A stretch of 63,344 nucleotides of DNA, filler included. It is 9 parts of 9 records of this genome, joined end to end, with 100 filler letters (N's around TTAATTAATTAA, not from the genome) between each part and the next. Parts side by side here need not be neighbours in the genome. Positions count along the whole stretch, not along the records: positions 12,969 to 19,404 come from SRR31156797_50455; 8 more parts are not named here. One strand, 5' to 3'. Under the pieces are notes generated by a model, which saw only the letters and a program-made list of their open reading frames with translations, ran no database searches and was not told the origin of the DNA. Numbering within the stretch: position 1 is the first letter of the stretch; each line of letters begins with the position of its first letter. The position numbers were made by a program, and so were the translations under genes. Below, in pieces: positions 5,656 to 58,013 of this stretch.

Positions 5656-5755
5656 NNNNNNNNNNNNNNNNNNNNNNNNNNNNNNNNNNNNNNNNNNNNT
5701 TAATTAATTAANNNNNNNNNNNNNNNNNNNNNNNNNNNNNNNNNNNNNNNNNNNN
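5656..5755. other. Artificial contig linker
   Basis: N44-TTAATTAATTAA-N44, stop codons in all six frames. Confidence 0.99.
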
Positions 5756-12868: not shown

Positions 12869-12968
12869 NNNNNNNNNNNNNNNNNNNNNNNNNNNNNNNN
12901 NNNNNNNNNNNNTTAATTAATTAANNNNNNNNNNNNNNNNNNNNNNNNNNNNNNNNNNNNNNNNNNNN
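12869..12968. other. Artificial contig linker
   Basis: N44-TTAATTAATTAA-N44. Confidence 0.99.
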
Positions 12969-12973
12969 TAAGT

Positions 12974-13008
12974 CGTAAAACGTGAAATGTAAGACGTGAA
13001 ACGTAAAA
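12974..13008 (+). repeat. Degenerate 7-bp tandem repeat (5 x YGTRARA)
   Basis: cgtaaaa cgtgaaa tgtaaga cgtgaaa cgtaaaa. Confidence 0.75.
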
Positions 13009-13010
13009 TA

Positions 13011-13080
13011 TGTAACAACGTGCCATGGCACATCGCTACATCATCATAATTATTTTGTAGAGCCACGCCATGGCGTGGCT
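13011..13080. repeat. Pair of GTAG-type REP palindromes in opposite orientation
   Basis: Minus strand TGTAGCGATGTGCCATGGCACGTTG (13016-13040) and plus strand TGTAGAGCCACGCCATGGCGTGGCT (13056-13080), both centred on CCATGG. Confidence 0.7.
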
Positions 13081-13171
13081 GGACATGTGAATAATAAAAT
13101 AATTTATAAAAAATGTTGCTGTTCTTCCTGAAATAAAGCAACTTATAAGCACAAATCCAATGAGGTGAAAC

Positions 13172-13399
13172 ATGCAGAAAGAAAATTTCGTTTTATTCGC
13201 AACGTTCCACGACAAACATGAATATGAAAAAGCTCGCAACATCCTGACTGACGCACGTATTCATTTTTGGGCCTCAAACAGTGCCCCCGGTGTTAATTAC
13301 AAAGTTCCCGATGCAGCCTTTACCAGTATCGAACTACACGTAGCCGAAGAGGATACGGAGAGAGTTGAAACCCTGCTTGCCCCACTTGAGCCAGCATAG
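13172..13399 (+). CDS. Small hypothetical protein, DUF2007/putative signal-transducing-like
   Basis: ARNILTDARI...IELHVAEED pattern; GAGG RBS. Confidence 0.6.
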   Translation: MQKENFVLFATFHDKHEYEKARNILTDARIHFWASNSAPGVNYKVPDAAFTSIELHVAEEDTERVETLLAPLEPA

Positions 13400-13522
13400 C
13401 AGACAGCAGTCAATAATTTTTTAATCGCCACTTGTTACCAGTTACTAGTCACTAGTTACCTCTTTTCTGCATATATAAATATTTTCCATGACAAAGGCAG
13501 ATTTTGAGCATATATTACTTTC

Positions 13523-14101
13523 ATGAAGACTAAATTATTCGAAGAAAAGAAATTCGAAAAGTTGAATGATCCCATTCGACTTGAGCATTTGCCGCCGGTT
13601 TATATAAAAGAAAAACTGAAAATGCAGGATGTCCGGGTGATCATGGATATCGGAGCCGGTACCGGTTTTTTCTCATTGCACTTCGCGAATATTTTTTCCG
13701 ACTCTAAAGTCTATGCCTGCGACATTTCCGACTTTATGGTGAATTACATGAAAGAAAAGATAGTACCTGTCAATCCGCGCATTCATCCGATGACCATGGC
13801 ACATGATAAAGTTCCCCTTCACGATGAACTGGCCGATTTGATCTTAATGATCAATTTGCATCATGAGATCGAAGATCCGATGGCGATACTGAAAGAATGC
13901 TATCGCTTGTTGAAACCCGGTGGCAAGGTTGTCGTTTCGGACTGGAAGAAAGAAGATACCGGATTCGGACCTTCACTGGAGATCCGATTTGAAACCGGGG
14001 AAGTAAAAGAACAGCTTGAAGCGAATGGCTTTATTAAGATCTTATCCGACGAATATCTGAAATTCAATTTTCTGGTCATTGCCGAGAAACCGAAAGCATA
14101 A
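13523..14101 (+). CDS. Class I SAM-dependent methyltransferase
   Basis: MDIGAGTG, YACDIS, LHHEIEDP, RLLKPGG. Confidence 0.9.
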   Translation: MKTKLFEEKKFEKLNDPIRLEHLPPVYIKEKLKMQDVRVIMDIGAGTGFFSLHFANIFSDSKVYACDISDFMVNYMKEKIVPVNPRIHPMTMAHDKVPLHDELADLILMINLHHEIEDPMAILKECYRLLKPGGKVVVSDWKKEDTGFGPSLEIRFETGEVKEQLEANGFIKILSDEYLKFNFLVIAEKPKA

Positions 14102-14454
14102 TGAAGAACATAGTTAAATTATCTTTTATTCTTATTCTGCTTGCCGCCTGTGCAAGCATACCTGTCGGGGACACATCGCGAAACGCTCTCGATTGGCCGG
14201 GAACATATAAATGCGATAAAATGACCATCACGCTCAAAGAGAATAACACCTATAAAGCACAAGTCGATGATACCGAAGTACGATCTTCCTTTCGTTGGGA
14301 TAGGAAAGGCCGGATCATTTGTTTGGATCATCTGATGAAAAAGGCCCCCTGTAAAAAGTTCAAAGTTGGAGAGAATGTGCTAATTCCACTGAAGAATTCA
14401 GGAAGGCCGAAGAAAGACGGGAAACCGCTAGTAAAAGTAAGCACTAGGCAGTAG
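14101..14454 (+). CDS. NlpE/CutF N-terminal-like lipoprotein
   Basis: Lipobox LAAC, SRNALDWPGTY, FRWD, FKVGEN motifs. Confidence 0.7.
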   Translation: MKNIVKLSFILILLAACASIPVGDTSRNALDWPGTYKCDKMTITLKENNTYKAQVDDTEVRSSFRWDRKGRIICLDHLMKKAPCKKFKVGENVLIPLKNSGRPKKDGKPLVKVSTRQ

Positions 14455-14530
14455 GCTGAAGTAAGGCCGGTAAACAGTAAGCAGTCGTCACCTGTGCTTT
14501 AGTGAATACCAATAATTCCCCAAGCAAAAC

Positions 14531-14560
14531 GAATATTTTATCCGGGAATATTTTATCCGG
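14531..14560 (+). repeat. 15-bp direct tandem duplication
   Basis: GAATATTTTATCCGG twice in a row in the intergenic region. Confidence 0.85.
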
Positions 14561-14714
14561 GATCTAAATTACTCTGTTATATTAACCTTTCAGATACATC
14601 CGTGTCTATTAATCGATACCGGAAAGAAATTTTTATTTATAAATAATTTTATGCGCAAGGATTGGGAATCGGATTTGTCAAATGAGTGAATCGAAAATTT
14701 TGAAGGAATTGTTT

Positions 14715-17021
14715 ATGCTGAAAAAACGGGGAATATTTTTACTGTTATTGCTTGCTATCTGCGCTATTGTCTTCGCTCAGGACCTCTATGACATTACCAA
14801 CATCACAACGATAGAACTGACATTCGAGGAATCAAATTGGGACTATCAACTGGATCTACTTTATGCTCAAGGTAACGAAGAGCGCTTGCTGGGAACTGCC
14901 GTGGTCAATGGCATTCAATTTGACAGTGTTGGCGTTCGTTATAAAGGGAATAGCTCCTATAGTTATAGCAATGCAAAAAACCCCTTAAATATTAAACTGG
15001 ATTACATGATCTCTGATCAGGAATACGATAACTACGGTACCCTGAAATTATCGAATGTATACAAGGATCCCAGTTATATCCGTGAGGTCATTGCTTATGA
15101 GATCGCTCGGGATTATATGCCGGCCTCTCTTTCAAATTATGCCAAAGTAACCATCAATGGGACATATATAGGTTTGTACACAAGTACTCAGGATGTAGAT
15201 AAATATTTTGCCAAAACTCATTTCGGTTCAAAGACCAATCCTTTTTTCAAAGGTGAGTTGACCAATAGCAGTCCCAATACACTTACAACCATATGGGGTT
15301 ATAATGGCATCCTCTCTTCATCATATACCAGCTACTATGAATTAGAATCAGATGATGGATGGAATGATCTGATCAATTTTCTCAATGTTTTCAATAATGA
15401 CGTTGAGAATGTTGAAGATGTGTTGAATGTTGATCGCCATCTGTGGATGTTGGCTTTCGACAATCTTCTGGTGAATCTGGATGCGCCCATTAATTTTGGA
15501 CACAATTATTATTTATATCAGGATAATGCCGGGCGTTTCAATCCCATCATCTGGGATATGAATGAGAATTTCGGCGGATTTTCAATGTTATTAGCAGGTT
15601 CTGAATTAAGCACCACGGGCATGCAGCAAATGAGTCCCTACCAAAATGCCAATTCTTCTTACTATCCGATCATTAAACAGGTTCTATCCAACGATCGATA
15701 TAAAAAAATGTACGTTGCCCATATGAAGACCATCATCAAAGATTGGTTTACGGATGGTGAGTTCCGGACCCGCGCTCTTGAATTACAGGATATCATTGAT
15801 TCTGACGTACTGAACGATCCTAATAAATTTTACACTTATAATAATTTTATCAGCAATATCGATGCCTCTGTTTCTACAAGTACAGGTGGACGACCTGGAC
15901 CCTCAAGTTCGATCGTCGGACTTACCCAACTGATGAATGCCCGGGCGACATATCTGAGTTCTCATAGCGATTTCACGCCCATTGCTCCGACCATTTCAAG
16001 CGTCAGCAATTCTCCCGCAGAGATCAGCATGGGAGATGATGTTACCTTTACATGTGATATCACAGATGGTGATACCGTAAAATTTTGCTATAGATCTTCG
16101 GTGAACGATGCTTTTACCAAGATCAAAATGCATGATGACGGTGCCCATAGCGACGGTTCTGTAGGTGATGGCGTGTACGGTGTAACAATTGCTGCCAATT
16201 CAAGCTATCTGGAATACTATTTTTATTCTGAAAATGATCATGCCGCAAGCTTCTTTCCCGAGGGTGCTGAATATGATGTATACTCAATGAATATATCCGG
16301 CAATCTGGTGCTGAATGAATTTATGGCTGACAACGAATCAACCGTTGCGGATGCTAATGGCGATTACGACGATTGGATCGAGCTTTACAATAACACGGAA
16401 AATGATATTTCTCTATCGGGATACTATCTGGCTGATGAGATCACGGATACTGAAGCATGGGCTTTCCCCGATACGGTCATTCCGGCTTATTCGTATTTGA
16501 TCGTTTGGGCTGACAAAGATGAGTATGTTGGCGAATTACACGCCGACTTTAAACTTTCCGCTTCGGGCGAAGCTATCTATTTGATCAACCCCAGTGATGA
16601 CGTTATTGACGAGATCGTTTTTGGTGCGCAAACAGCCGATATATCCCAGGGACGTTATGAAAATGGCGTTGGCGATTGGGAATTTATGCCCCCCAGTTTT
16701 TCTGCAGAAAATATTTACAACCAAAGTTCAATAGATGATGATATCAGTATGCCGTCGGAATTCGCACTTGAACCGAATTACCCGAATCCCTTTAATCCGA
16801 CCACGACCATTGCTTTCAGTATCGCGGAAGCCGACGGCGTATCTTTGAACATCTATAATGCATCCGGCAGATTGGTGGATACCATTCTGAGCAATAGTTA
16901 TTGCTCCGCAGGGTACTACCGTTATCAATGGAATGCCTCAAGTTTTGCTTCCGGTGTATATATTGCCGTACTTCAAAGCAGCACGCAACGATCCACGCAA
17001 AAACTGATCTTGTTGAAATAA
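14715..17021 (+). CDS. Secreted CotH kinase-family protein with Ca-binding-like segment, lamin-tail domain and C-terminal secretion sorting domain
   Basis: Signal peptide; CotH motifs RYKGNSS, KLSN..DPSYIREVIAY, YIGLY, HNYYLY, PIIWDMNENFG; MHDDGAHSDGSVGDGVYG; LTD motifs LNEFMADN..DWIELYN..FKLSASGE; C-terminal YPNPFNP...SGVY..KLILLK. Confidence 0.9.
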   Translation: MLKKRGIFLLLLLAICAIVFAQDLYDITNITTIELTFEESNWDYQLDLLYAQGNEERLLGTAVVNGIQFDSVGVRYKGNSSYSYSNAKNPLNIKLDYMISDQEYDNYGTLKLSNVYKDPSYIREVIAYEIARDYMPASLSNYAKVTINGTYIGLYTSTQDVDKYFAKTHFGSKTNPFFKGELTNSSPNTLTTIWGYNGILSSSYTSYYELESDDGWNDLINFLNVFNNDVENVEDVLNVDRHLWMLAFDNLLVNLDAPINFGHNYYLYQDNAGRFNPIIWDMNENFGGFSMLLAGSELSTTGMQQMSPYQNANSSYYPIIKQVLSNDRYKKMYVAHMKTIIKDWFTDGEFRTRALELQDIIDSDVLNDPNKFYTYNNFISNIDASVSTSTGGRPGPSSSIVGLTQLMNARATYLSSHSDFTPIAPTISSVSNSPAEISMGDDVTFTCDITDGDTVKFCYRSSVNDAFTKIKMHDDGAHSDGSVGDGVYGVTIAANSSYLEYYFYSENDHAASFFPEGAEYDVYSMNISGNLVLNEFMADNESTVADANGDYDDWIELYNNTENDISLSGYYLADEITDTEAWAFPDTVIPAYSYLIVWADKDEYVGELHADFKLSASGEAIYLINPSDDVIDEIVFGAQTADISQGRYENGVGDWEFMPPSFSAENIYNQSSIDDDISMPSEFALEPNYPNPFNPTTTIAFSIAEADGVSLNIYNASGRLVDTILSNSYCSAGYYRYQWNASSFASGVYIAVLQSSTQRSTQKLILLK

Positions 17022-17093
17022 AGGGAATTGCCATTCATGATGATTTTGACTTATATTCACTTGATATCAGAATGAGAAAAGATACTTAAGGTC

Positions 17094-17873
17094 ATGCAGA
17101 ATACTTTTACCAACATACTTTCCGGTATAAAGCTGGAATCTCTTCCTCTTGAAGAAACCGCAAAGGTACGCTTGATGAACCGTATCGACAAAAAATACTG
17201 GTTCCATGATTCGGAATTGCCGGCACTTCTGGAAGCGATAAAAGATGATTATTATATCCAGTCCGTGGACGGAAAAACCTATCAGGATTACGGGACCAAG
17301 TACTTTGATACCCCGGATGATCGCATGTATACCCTGCATCACAATGGCAAACTGAACCGCTATAAGATCCGTCGCAGGGATTATCTGGACAGCGACGACC
17401 ATTTCCTGGAAGTGAAATTCAAGAACAACCAAGGCCGTACCATCAAGAAGCGGGTGGAGTCCACAGTCAAGGCTGCAGATTTTAATAATAATGAGAATGA
17501 ATTTCTCAAGAAGCGCAGTATTTTTGGTGAGGATGAACTGCAGGTTGCACTCAAGAATAAGTTCACGCGTTTGACCTTGATCGCCAAAAACAGCGCAGAA
17601 CGAGTAACGATCGATACCGGTATCAGTTTCATTTCTTGTGATAAGGTCGTTGATATGGATAATTTGGCCATTCTTGAATTGAAAACCGAAAAGGGCGGCC
17701 GCGATTCATCATTGAAAAGATATCTGAGAGACAAACGGATCAAATCGGCCGGATTTTCAAAATATTGCATCGGCCGCGCCTTGACAGATAATACGCTGAA
17801 ACGCAATCGTTTTAAACAAAGGATCCGTCAGATCGGTAAGATCACCGGTCATGCGGACCTCTACAATATGTAA
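17094..17873 (+). CDS. VTC-domain (polyphosphate polymerase, CYTH-like) protein
   Basis: LMNRIDKKY, YFDTPD, RYKIRRRDY, FLEVKFK, ERVTID, ILELK, FSKYCIG. Confidence 0.9.
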   Translation: MQNTFTNILSGIKLESLPLEETAKVRLMNRIDKKYWFHDSELPALLEAIKDDYYIQSVDGKTYQDYGTKYFDTPDDRMYTLHHNGKLNRYKIRRRDYLDSDDHFLEVKFKNNQGRTIKKRVESTVKAADFNNNENEFLKKRSIFGEDELQVALKNKFTRLTLIAKNSAERVTIDTGISFISCDKVVDMDNLAILELKTEKGGRDSSLKRYLRDKRIKSAGFSKYCIGRALTDNTLKRNRFKQRIRQIGKITGHADLYNM

Positions 17874-17881
17874 GGGATACT

Positions 17882-18565
17882 ATGAATTTTCTTTTTGCAC
17901 AAGATACCACAGCAAGCGTTCCCCTGAACGAACTGTTTGAAAATATCCGCTTTTTGGATATTCGTGTGATCAATGTGGCCGACACCCTGGAACTGTTTGT
18001 TCGGCTGGCTTTCAATTTGCTGGTCATTGCACTGATCGTCACGAAGATCTATAATAAACGCTCGAACTCCAAGGAATTCTCATTTTCCTTCATCGCGATC
18101 GGCGCTGTCGTTTTCTTGCTGAGCTTTTTGATGAACAGTGTGAAATTGCAGTTAGGATTCGCGTTCGGACTCTTTGCCATTTTCGGGATCATCCGTTATC
18201 GTACGGATACTATTCCGATCAAGGAAATGACATTCCTCTTTGTGGTGATAGCTGTTTCCGTGATCAATGCCCTGGCGAATAAAAAGGTCTCTTACGTGGA
18301 ATTGGTCCTGACAAACGCAGTGGTCTTCTTTGGATTATTTTATCTTGAAAAAGTATTGAACCCGAGAAAAGAACATGTTATGCGTATGCGCTATGAAAAA
18401 ATTGAACATATGAATAAAAAGGACGAGGCATTGCTCCTGGAAGATATTCGTGAGCGCACCGGATTGAACGTTACGCGCTTCACCGTTGAGCGTATCGATT
18501 ATTTGCGCGATATTGCGGATATGACGCTTTACTATTTCGATGATGAACCGACAGAAAAGGAATAA
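17882..18565 (+). CDS. DUF4956 family membrane protein
   Basis: LGFAFGLFAIFGIIRYRT..IKEMTFLF signature, 4-5 TM segments, C-terminal LLEDIRERTGL. Confidence 0.88.
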   Translation: MNFLFAQDTTASVPLNELFENIRFLDIRVINVADTLELFVRLAFNLLVIALIVTKIYNKRSNSKEFSFSFIAIGAVVFLLSFLMNSVKLQLGFAFGLFAIFGIIRYRTDTIPIKEMTFLFVVIAVSVINALANKKVSYVELVLTNAVVFFGLFYLEKVLNPRKEHVMRMRYEKIEHMNKKDEALLLEDIRERTGLNVTRFTVERIDYLRDIADMTLYYFDDEPTEKE

Positions 18566-18567
18566 GC

Positions 18568-19200
18568 GTGAAACATTTCTATAAAAAACTATTACTCGCA
18601 TCGCTGATCGTCTCCTCGGTATTTGCCTTGCAAATGGATGAACTGGAATTACGTCCCTCTGCAACGATCAGATTCTCACCGATCAAGAAAGTGAAACTGT
18701 ATGTCACTCCCGAGTTGCGATTCGATTATTTTACCCTGGATAAATTCCTGCTGGAAACCAAAGTGAAATATTCACCCTTGAAATATATGGATGTCGGAGC
18801 CGCATACAAGCTGGTATTGAATCGCAGAACCAATGATCCCCTTGAGGTCATTCATCGTTTTGACGTTTATGTCGCCGGTGATTACAAGATCGATCGCTTT
18901 ACACCTTCATTACGATTAATGTACGTGAGTGAGGATGAAGACGAAGGAAGCTCGCATTTATTGCGCTACAAAGCAAAGCTTGAGTATGATATTCCCAAGG
19001 TCAAGATAGATCCTTTTGTCGCTGCGGAACTTCAGCATCAATTGACTGACGGCACCCTATACAAGATGCGCTACAGTCTTGGAGCCGATTGGCGCTTTGC
19101 CAAGGATATGTCGCTGGGATTGGCCTATAAGATGGATTCATATTTTGATTCCGGTGATGTGAAGCATATTGTGGAGTTGGGGTATACCTATAAGTTTTAA
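18568..19200 (+). CDS. DUF2490-like outer-membrane beta-barrel protein
   Basis: Signal peptide, alternating amphipathic strands, LRYKAKLEY, PFVAAE, RYSLG, C-terminal LGYTYKF. Confidence 0.75.
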   Translation: MKHFYKKLLLASLIVSSVFALQMDELELRPSATIRFSPIKKVKLYVTPELRFDYFTLDKFLLETKVKYSPLKYMDVGAAYKLVLNRRTNDPLEVIHRFDVYVAGDYKIDRFTPSLRLMYVSEDEDEGSSHLLRYKAKLEYDIPKVKIDPFVAAELQHQLTDGTLYKMRYSLGADWRFAKDMSLGLAYKMDSYFDSGDVKHIVELGYTYKF

Positions 19201-19222
19201 TCAATAATAAAATAATATACTC

Positions 19223-19399
19223 GTCATCCTGAAACGATGTCCGGTGGACATCGGGGTTCAGGATCTCTCTGTCTATTCGATTTTCAATAATTGAAATGAG
19301 AATAATTATTTTCTGATACATTCCAAATATTATGAATGGCAATACTCGCGGAGGTCTCCCTACGGGACCCCTGCGGGGCTGAAACAAGTTCAGGATGAC
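19223..19399. repeat. Palindromic REP/MITE-like element with GTCATCCTGAA termini
   Basis: GTCATCCTGAA (19223-19233) and TTCAGGATGAC (19389-19399) are inverted repeats; internal hairpin CGATGTCC-GGT-GGACATCG; sits at the contig end. Confidence 0.7.
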
Positions 19400-19404
19400 C
19401 CGCG

Positions 19405-19504
19405 NNNNNNNNNNNNNNNNNNNNNNNNNNNNNNNNNNNNNNNNNNNNTTAATTAATTAANNNNNNNNNNNNNNNNNNNNNNNNNNNNNNNNNNNNNNNN
19501 NNNN
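19405..19504. other. Artificial contig linker
   Basis: N44-TTAATTAATTAA-N44. Confidence 0.99.
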
Positions 19505-26761: not shown

Positions 26762-26861
26762 NNNNNNNNNNNNNNNNNNNNNNNNNNNNNNNNNNNNNNN
26801 NNNNNTTAATTAATTAANNNNNNNNNNNNNNNNNNNNNNNNNNNNNNNNNNNNNNNNNNNN
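26762..26861. other. Artificial contig linker
   Basis: N44-TTAATTAATTAA-N44. Confidence 0.99.
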
Positions 26862-36303: not shown

Positions 36304-36403
36304 NNNNNNNNNNNNNNNNNNNNNNNNNNNNNNNNNNNNNNNNNNNNTTAATTAATTAANNNNNNNNNNNNNNNNNNNNNNNNNNNNNNNNNNNNNNNNN
36401 NNN
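36304..36403. other. Artificial contig linker
   Basis: N44-TTAATTAATTAA-N44. Confidence 0.99.
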
Positions 36404-42132: not shown

Positions 42133-42232
42133 NNNNNNNNNNNNNNNNNNNNNNNNNNNNNNNNNNNNNNNNNNNNTTAATTAATTAANNNNNNNNNNNN
42201 NNNNNNNNNNNNNNNNNNNNNNNNNNNNNNNN
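42133..42232. other. Artificial contig linker
   Basis: N44-TTAATTAATTAA-N44. Confidence 0.99.
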
Positions 42233-48383: not shown

Positions 48384-48483
48384 NNNNNNNNNNNNNNNNN
48401 NNNNNNNNNNNNNNNNNNNNNNNNNNNTTAATTAATTAANNNNNNNNNNNNNNNNNNNNNNNNNNNNNNNNNNNNNNNNNNNN
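48384..48483. other. Artificial contig linker
   Basis: N44-TTAATTAATTAA-N44. Confidence 0.99.
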
Positions 48484-57913: not shown

Positions 57914-58013
57914 NNNNNNNNNNNNNNNNNNNNNNNNNNNNNNNNNNNNNNNNNNNNTTAATTAATTAANNNNNNNNNNNNNNNNNNNNNNNNNNNNNNN
58001 NNNNNNNNNNNNN
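57914..58013. other. Artificial contig linker
   Basis: N44-TTAATTAATTAA-N44. Confidence 0.99.

Follow-up and report, generated by a model that had tools for sequence, protein, structure and literature searches.

A linked VTC, DUF4956, DUF2490 and CotH gene module as a candidate route for polyphosphate to the bacterial cell surface

Polyphosphate in bacteria is attributed to PPK1 and PPK2, and a locus that joins a gene for a VTC domain, the catalytic domain of the yeast polyphosphate polymerase Vtc4, to genes for a DUF4956 membrane protein, a DUF2490 outer-membrane barrel and a secreted CotH-family kinase therefore raises the question of whether these four products make polyphosphate and carry it out of the cell. 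The locus lies on one contig of a 63,344-nt stretch of DNA (hereafter the window, meaning the whole stretch analysed), and an earlier note made from the letters of that DNA had proposed that it encodes a system for polyphosphate synthesis, export and surface phosphorylation. We find that these genes make up one copy of a module that is widely conserved, and we judge the chances to be about even that this module spans the envelope, makes polyphosphate and delivers it towards CotH kinases at the cell surface.

Open reading frame (ORF) calls bore out the arrangement described in that note, four co-oriented genes with intergenic gaps of 72, 8 and 2 nt, here placed on the + strand over 14682..19200, and in the profile check that it had called for all four products exceeded the curated Pfam cut-offs. 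The first ORF (14682..17021, +, 779 amino acids) encodes a secreted CotH kinase-family protein with a signal peptide, a CotH kinase domain (14934..15848, residues 85-389; PF08757, 2.2e-41, 142.9 bits against a cut-off of 23.8), an LTD (lamin-tail) Ig-like domain (16296..16622, residues 539-647; PF00932, 1.8e-18) and a C-terminal type A sorting domain of the type IX secretion system (T9SS) at 16779..17009, residues 700-776, which was matched by both Por_Secre_tail (PF18962, 1.6e-10) and NCBIfam TIGR04183 (1.3e-10). It is followed on the same strand by the VTC-domain protein (17094..17873, 259 amino acids; PF09359, 6.5e-27, 95 bits against 23, profile positions 1-233 of 235), the DUF4956 inner-membrane protein (17882..18565, 227 amino acids; PF16316, 6.6e-46, 156.6 bits against 30.6, profile positions 1-169 of 169) and the DUF2490 outer-membrane β-barrel (18568..19200, 210 amino acids, GTG start; PF10677, 1.4e-12, 48.2 bits against 29.8). 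As had been claimed, the products are predicted to span the cytoplasm, inner membrane, outer membrane and cell surface.

A DUF4956 profile fetched 80 loci from species-representative genomes, most of them labelled Bacteroidales and some Neomarinimicrobiota, Cyclobacteriaceae, Saprospiraceae or Chitinophaga, and their genes were counted with profiles that had been built up by iteration from the four window proteins. In 78 of these loci a VTC gene stood directly 5' of DUF4956 and in the same orientation, and DUF2490 was present in 74, almost always directly 3' of DUF4956 and in most with frames that overlap or nearly touch. A CotH kinase domain was encoded in 47; because several loci are cut by contig ends, the counts for DUF2490 and CotH are minima. 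The usual gene order was VTC, DUF4956, DUF2490 and a short CotH (about 460 amino acids). The order seen in the window, a long CotH gene ahead of VTC, DUF4956 and DUF2490, recurred in L037, G184, G172 and G160, and the long CotH of L037 shares 51% identity with that of the window by BLASTP and 58% in the domain alignment. Other recurrent neighbours of the 80 loci encode a LytTR response regulator (43 loci), a LytS-type histidine kinase (33), an Lcl_C-domain protein (19) and a Cthe_2159 carbohydrate-binding protein (14), with examples at L012:16776-17492, L009:4264-5403, L043:12840-14159 and L005:12883-14631, and a 135-residue protein that has no Pfam match lies upstream of VTC in 16.

Pfam profile searches of two genome samples extended this picture. 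Sample 1 comprised 151 genomes from the phylum of G001, and sample 2 comprised 101 genomes from the phylum of G003, including G002, the closest relative; the two groups are not necessarily different phyla. Sample 1 yielded matches to VTC in 27 genomes, DUF4956 in 48, CotH in 57 and DUF2490 in 48, and sample 2 to VTC in 32, DUF4956 in 34 and CotH in 47. Genomes with VTC also had DUF4956 in 27 of 27 and 31 of 32 cases, respectively, and CotH in 27 of 27 and 29 of 32, compared with CotH in 30/124 and 18/69 of the genomes that lack VTC; in the three VTC genomes of sample 2 without CotH the VTC matches are fragmentary or lie at a contig start. Fisher tests of the association between VTC and CotH gave p values of 2.7e-14 (sample 1) and 8.1e-10 (sample 2), which overstate independence because relatedness was ignored. 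A more independent hint of linkage came from 14 named control genomes, in which VTC and DUF4956 occurred in the same three, B. thetaiotaomicron, C. glutamicum and M. acetivorans, each of which also has CotH; B. subtilis has CotH alone. DUF4956 was matched directly 3' of VTC for 28 of the 30 VTC matches in sample 1, and in sample 2 it adjoined VTC in 23 genomes and lay 2.6-3.7 kb upstream on the same strand in 8. By the gene order of the 80 loci and the two genome samples the four families, which the earlier note had described as co-occurring, are linked far beyond chance, and VTC and DUF4956 form a pair of the obligate type. VTC seems always to be accompanied by DUF4956 and CotH; CotH and DUF4956-like proteins also occur where VTC does not.

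The VTC protein is cytoplasmic by prediction, consisting of the VTC domain alone with no signal peptide, SPX domain or membrane domain, and R30, K34, K91, R93, R95, E106, K108, R159, R170, E195, K197, S222 and K223 are invariant in 46 relatives. The ExExK motif, which marks hydrolase-type triphosphate-tunnel enzymes, is not present on its first strand. Roles for K200, K281, Y359, R361 and R373 of yeast Vtc4 are said to have been described by Hothorn et al. in 2009. When the window protein was aligned by profile to the Vtc4 structure 3g3q, K34, R93, R95, K108, R159 and R170 paired with 3g3q positions 15, 79, 81, 96, 176 and 188, which are Vtc4 K200, R264, R266, K281, R361 and R373, in that order, while E106 and F157 paired with Vtc4 E279 and Y359. 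All eight residues, F157 included, are invariant in the 46 relatives, and the Vtc4 tunnel residues within reach of the alignment are kept. Vtc4 numbering was taken as the 3g3q chain numbering +185, an offset verified by R264 and R266 as named in the available text of PMC9911596. That text describes a catalytically impaired Vtc4 triple mutant (R264A/R266A/E426N), a yeast VTC channel lined by Lys and Arg, and synthesis coupled to translocation (PMC9911596).

Compared with the yeast VTC complex (Vtc4, Vtc3 or Vtc2, and Vtc1), the window enzyme has a catalytic domain of the same Pfam family, PF09359, matched over its full length, keeps the tunnel residues aligned with K200, R264, R266, K281, R361 and R373, and is likewise genetically tied to a membrane protein. 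It differs in being a separate soluble protein of 259 residues with neither SPX nor membrane helices, and its partner is a DUF4956 protein of five helices and an ACT-like domain rather than a three-helix domain of the Vtc1 type. The bacterial set also adds an outer-membrane barrel and surface kinases. What the locus presents is thus a putative polyphosphate polymerase of the VTC type whose membrane partner differs from that in yeast and which is joined by a stage in the outer membrane. No fused or longer VTC proteins were found, which is weak evidence.

The DUF4956 protein was modelled (predicted local distance difference test score, pLDDT, 73.6) with five predicted helices, 32-57, 64-83, 87-108, 113-131 and 138-159, followed by a C-terminal β-α-β-β domain at 164-219. 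K88, R105, Y106, R107, K114, E115, K134 and E140 are invariant in 32 relatives, the charged residues among them (K88, R105, R107, K114, E115, K134 and E140) lying at both membrane faces, and the spread of Lys and Arg in the loops suggests an N-terminus outside and a cytoplasmic tail. Prediction of a VTC-DUF4956 complex returned a score of 0.00 against a mark of 0.34, which is neither support nor counter-evidence, and an ESM Atlas look-up gave no usable match for DUF4956. A transport role for the membrane domain is hinted at by DUF4956-like proteins that occur without VTC: a divergent form, matched in its membrane part only, adjoins a periplasmic adaptor of the HlyD type in 10 of 10 genomes examined. 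The block in which it stands is fixed in L081-L090 (for example L082:4785-5468), comprises in addition a 410-residue protein with no Pfam match, an SDR protein and DUF6580, and may represent an export system of its own that uses a DUF4956-type membrane module. Seven fused or longer DUF4956 proteins, including three DUF2490+DUF4956 and one Cthe_2159+DUF4956, are possibly the result of gene-calling read-through. In the closest relative, G002, the DUF4956 gene (G002:C1:94491-95012; also L001:10001-10684) has one in-frame TGA, which could reflect a pseudogene, a sequencing error or recoding.

The β-barrel ending in F that had been read from the DNA was confirmed for the DUF2490 protein, which has a signal peptide, a C-terminus of ...YTYKF with Phe as its last residue, and a barrel model with a pLDDT of 93.2. 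The model has 12 strands, and its best structure matches are porins for acidic oligosaccharides, KdgM (4pr7; Z 16.8, root-mean-square deviation (rmsd) 2.2 over 156 residues), NanC (2wjq; Z 16.7, rmsd 2.7 over 170 residues) and VhGalP (8xua; Z 16.2); because 12-stranded autotransporter barrels score less than 1 Z unit away from the top match (NalP, 16.5), only the barrel class is established. With KdgM and NanC the protein shares predicted fold, size, strand number and a charged lumen, which in the model is faced by 17 K/R and 16 D/E, but sequence identity is about 10% and the Pfam family is another one. We compared 44 linked DUF2490 proteins with 20 unlinked ones, which are 11-18% identical to the window protein and have heterogeneous gene neighbours. 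The linked branch adds basic K43, R81, K135, K166, K176 and K209 and acidic E49, D58, E93, D124 and D190. The conserved arginines of the family had been considered as the mark of a polyphosphate-specific channel, an idea that was dropped since the unlinked proteins keep them.

Translation of the CotH protein from 14715 (Met12 of the ORF that opens at 14682) yields a canonical signal peptide, MLKKRGIFLLLLLAICAIVFA/QD, and this is likely the true start. A profile made from 31 relatives matches the B. cereus CotH structure 5jd9 (E 2.8e-37), and the window motifs VNLD, HNYYLY and IIWDMNE share columns with the consensus motifs QNWD, HNYYLY and IPWDNNE, which align in turn with QNFD, HNYALY and IPWDYD of 5jd9. 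D227 and D252 (domain numbering, alignment A4; D267 and D292 of the ORF) are invariant and N225, N254 and E255 (N265, N294 and E295) nearly so; the conserved Asp and Asn residues of the CotH motifs are reportedly catalytic, a result credited to Nguyen et al. in 2016. Relative to the Bacillus CotH spore-coat kinase (PDB 5jd9/5jda), the window protein shows homology in the kinase domain and keeps the Asp/Asn motifs, but it is exported by predicted Sec and T9SS routes and carries LTD and sorting domains. Bacillus CotH works inside the mother cell, with ATP available.

The T9SS translocon family SprA_N was found in all five related genomes searched. In the relatives, 46 CotH genes lie directly after DUF2490, 36 of which begin no more than 14 nt past its stop, and N-termini read by eye show a lipoprotein signal, Cys followed by R/K and then acidic residues, in 45 of the 46 (31 of 46 when counted with a strict pattern). 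This signal resembles the surface-export signal of Bacteroidota, and judging by these signals both the T9SS-tailed and the lipoprotein forms of CotH seem bound for the cell surface. CotH and DUF2490 genes also stand close together with no VTC or DUF4956 near (G001:C99:242785-245841, G104:C7:26316-29048, G148:C22:87674-91834), and because such pairs occur an outer-membrane CotH-DUF2490 sub-module is suggested. In G002 no CotH gene adjoins VTC-DUF4956.

Part of the module is already in the literature. Genes for cotH, a 'polyphosphate polymerase' and DUF4956 (also DUF4832) are described as accessory genes of Gram-positive pel loci in the accessible sections of the reports on these loci (10.1101/768473, PMC7112168; Whitfield et al. 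2020), and the triad directly adjoins pelDEADAFG in streptococci, clostridia and bifidobacteria (10.1101/768473). The same triad is SIR_1594-1592 of S. intermedius in the accessible part of an mBio paper of 2025 (PMC12345266) and its preprint, and C. perfringens NELoc-2 carries it together with a glycosyltransferase and a polysaccharide deacetylase, as far as the available text of PMC11677781 goes. For B. thetaiotaomicron, a table of the iron stimulon lists BT3498-3499 (DUF4956, DUF2490) in a single row (PMC10434189). Relative to the Gram-positive triad and NELoc-2, the window has the same three families, contiguous and co-oriented and with an exported CotH, but the window and the 80 loci have no pel genes, the gene order differs, and the window adds the DUF2490 barrel and a T9SS tail on CotH (in relatives, a lipoprotein signal). 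The mBio paper states, in the part available, that this synteny was not found outside the Pel locus (PMC12345266), a remark that fails for the lineages studied here. The earlier note had known of no functional description, and this stands in that our literature search found no biochemistry on the module; it does not stand for the triad, which is in print at pel loci, with mild aggregation phenotypes described for deletion of the S. intermedius DUF4956 and CotH genes in the accessible part of PMC12345266. The gene triad is already in print, and for the form with DUF2490 the same search gave no description.

In the mechanism that we favor, the cytoplasmic VTC protein would be a Vtc4-type tunnel enzyme that polymerises phosphate from a nucleoside triphosphate, and DUF4956, as its obligate and translationally coupled partner with a cytoplasmic ACT-like domain, would carry the nascent polyanion across the inner membrane, doing the job of the yeast Vtc1/3/4 membrane channel with no kinship to it. 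The DUF2490 barrel would then pass the polymer on, whole or as phosphate units, to the cell surface, where CotH, arriving by the T9SS here and in most relatives as a lipoprotein encoded directly after DUF2490, would act on the polymer or with it. The dependence of VTC on CotH, and not the reverse, fits a CotH that acts on or with the VTC product and CotH paralogues that do other things. Polymerisation, transport and the use of polyphosphate by CotH are steps that we infer from the observed gene content, linkage, catalytic-type residues and predicted compartments. Measured against this, the mechanism of the earlier note is a reasonable one where the VTC-DUF4956 pair is concerned, but its case for the barrel is weaker and its part for CotH is speculative. 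Its full chain, a line across two membranes from a Vtc4-like polymerase through DUF4956 and DUF2490 to a surface CotH that uses polyphosphate, not ATP, as phosphodonor, strikes us as unlikely.

The linkage, the obligate pair, the predicted compartments, the kept tunnel residues and the porin-like barrel argue for this overall interpretation; against it stand a barrel core that is not specific to polyphosphate and a DUF4956 protein with no detectable likeness to the Vtc1/3/4 membrane domains, and several further observations weigh on the same side. Most triphosphate-tunnel families are hydrolases or cyclases, and yeast Vtc2/3 retain the fold yet are inactive. The profile alignment of VTC to Vtc4 is in register but weak (E 0.079), and a single-sequence search of PDB sequences gave a weak match to Vtc2 (E 0.038); because of this weakness we used the alignment and did not count its E-value as evidence. 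The alignment also ends before the equivalent of Vtc4 E426, for which the invariant E195 (motif ExK) is a candidate. For DUF4956, a Foldseek search of the PDB found nothing at E<=0.001, and the best Z from VIA-align, run over 48,161 chains, was 7.9, at the level of helical-bundle noise; a VTC membrane chain and MgtC were absent from these fold-search results, an absence that does not exclude either. An ACT-like tail such as that of DUF4956 typically belongs to regulators that sense ligands, and G116 and G140 have a strong DUF4956 match and no VTC match; in G116 the DUF4956 gene (L091:4963-8071) is followed by genes for a 341-residue protein with no Pfam match and a phosphoesterase of the calcineurin-like/purple-acid type. 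In DUF2490, R51, Y68, R97, R116, R133, E154 and R168 are common to the linked proteins and the 20 unlinked ones and therefore represent a family trait rather than an adaptation to polyphosphate. A 2026 preprint reads such DUF2490 residues as a buried charge network, which these core residues probably are, and such a network could mean a closed barrel. CotH occurs without VTC in 30 of 57 (sample 1) and 18 of 47 (sample 2) CotH genomes, and its use of polyphosphate as donor is speculative. Our literature search turned up no test of what a bacterial VTC protein does and no account of the DUF2490 form, and deletion of the S. intermedius VTC gene did not significantly change aggregation in the part of PMC12345266 available.

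In the main rival account, VTC and DUF4956 are a regulatory pair with no export: VTC would bind or hydrolyse tri- or polyphosphate in the cytoplasm, DUF4956, laid out as MgtC is, would adjust envelope processes, exopolysaccharide production for one, to the cell's state of phosphate or energy, and CotH and the barrel would be co-regulated envelope proteins. We regard this account as possible, if rather doubtful. The S. intermedius deletions lend it some weight, since in the accessible text loss of the DUF4956 gene raised the Pel signal and loss of the CotH gene lowered it, next to the VTC deletion with its lack of a significant effect on aggregation, and the same text gives the DUF4956 homologue a membrane domain of the MgtC type and an ACT domain (PMC12345266). 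The ACT-like tail of DUF4956, the absence of a transporter-like fold match, the frequency of LytTR response regulators (43) and histidine kinases (33) near the 80 loci and the VTC-less DUF4956-like proteins in 21 of the 48 sample 1 genomes with DUF4956 point the same way. However, the likeness of DUF4956 to the MgtC family is one of domain layout alone, Pfam MgtC being matched by 0 of 32 DUF4956 proteins at E up to 5; the tunnel residues are invariant, which a mere sensor need not require; and the VTC-less DUF4956-like proteins stand in a transport context, beside the HlyD-type adaptor. A pair that only regulates is also hard to square with a tight operon that includes an outer-membrane barrel and surface-directed kinases, and with the presence of CotH in every sample 1 genome that has VTC.

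Alternatively, the module might serve as a cassette for modifying a surface polymer, with CotH as a glycan or matrix kinase, VTC-DUF4956 as the supplier of a phosphodonor or of a polyanion that cross-links a cationic matrix, and the barrel as the outer-membrane route, so that the main product would be a modified matrix and not free polyphosphate. The contiguity of the triad with pelDEADAFG in streptococci, clostridia and bifidobacteria and its company of a glycosyltransferase and a polysaccharide deacetylase in NELoc-2, both as given in the accessible parts of the sources cited above, agree with such a role, as do Cthe_2159 near 14 and Lcl_C near 19 of the 80 loci and the one Cthe_2159+DUF4956 fused protein on record. 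Against this, pel or other polysaccharide-synthase genes were found neither among the recurrent families annotated in the 80 Bacteroidota-type loci nor, by ORF calls and Pfam, on the window contig; the module therefore stands alone in these lineages, and we hold this alternative to be improbable. That VTC-DUF4956 is a phosphate- or polyphosphate-handling pair and CotH-DUF2490 an independent outer-membrane pair merely often nearby is very unlikely, for although CotH-DUF2490 pairs lack a VTC neighbour in G001:C99, G104:C7 and G148:C22, the G002 CotH genes lie away from VTC-DUF4956 and 33 of the 80 loci have no CotH within the available DNA, CotH accompanies VTC in 27/27 and 29/32 genomes (the exceptions being contig-start or fragment matches), DUF2490 follows DUF4956 directly, with overlapping or near-touching frames, in most of 74 loci, and the window-like order recurs in four other places (L037, G184, G172 and G160).

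If the module does make polyphosphate and hand it on to CotH kinases at the surface, bacteria would have, in a Vtc4-type polymerase that comes with an export path, another route to the polymer and the first dedicated means of placing it outside the cytoplasm. It would hint at the phosphoryl source of exported CotH kinases, ATP being scarce outside the cell. Were the full chain to hold, with polyphosphate as phosphodonor, these would be the first enzymes of the protein-kinase fold to run on polyphosphate, an answer to how bacteria phosphorylate extracellularly; the chain would also count as a third, non-PPK route to polyphosphate in prokaryotes and offer a source for the extracellular polyphosphate of sediments and guts. 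Since the module is common (27/151 and 32/101 genomes, and three control genomes), its function matters for gut commensals and for biofilm matrices, among them those of pel loci and of C. perfringens NELoc-2, and may matter for how phosphorus is cycled in sediments.

The immediate surroundings of the cluster are set by the assembly. Scanning the window revealed eight 100-nt spacers of the form N44-TTAATTAATTAA-N44, at 5656-5755, 12869-12968, 19405-19504, 26762-26861, 36304-36403, 42133-42232, 48384-48483 and 57914-58013, which are artificial contig joins; the window is therefore nine contigs set end to end, and gene adjacency across spacers is not real. The cluster has a contig of its own (12969-19404, 6,436 bases), bounded on the left by the spacer at 12869..12968 and on the right by that at 19405..19504, 204 nt past the DUF2490 stop. 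Because of these spacers the DctP, molybdopterin-dehydrogenase and flotillin genes that flank the cluster in the window are not true neighbours. The contig has a GC content of 0.416 against 0.49-0.565 in the other eight and its closest relatives are in the group of G002 and G003; it may come from another organism than the rest of the bin, that is, be mis-binned, or may have been acquired recently. A low-GC island inside one genome had been considered and was dropped once the spacers were recognised.

Upstream of the cluster the contig carries a methyltransferase gene (13523-14101) and a gene for an NlpE-like lipoprotein (14101-14454), which we left out of the module because no homologues of either were found among the 80 related loci. 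Downstream, a tblastn search for a remnant of the short CotH gene found no second CotH anywhere in the window, and by eye no frame longer than about 20 codons begins in the 204 nt past the DUF2490 stop; the cluster could continue past the contig end. Scans for sigma-70 promoters (18 against 17.7) and terminators (7 against 5.6) stayed at the level of shuffled sequence. One public DNA run covers the stretch in 30 of 30 bins with no joints, a coverage that is not independent because the run is probably the source sample, and no RNA run is listed for the stretch. It shows loose ends at 13095, 19223 and 19269, of which the latter two fall in the non-coding tail (19201-19404), where the assembly probably broke off at a strain variant or a repeat.

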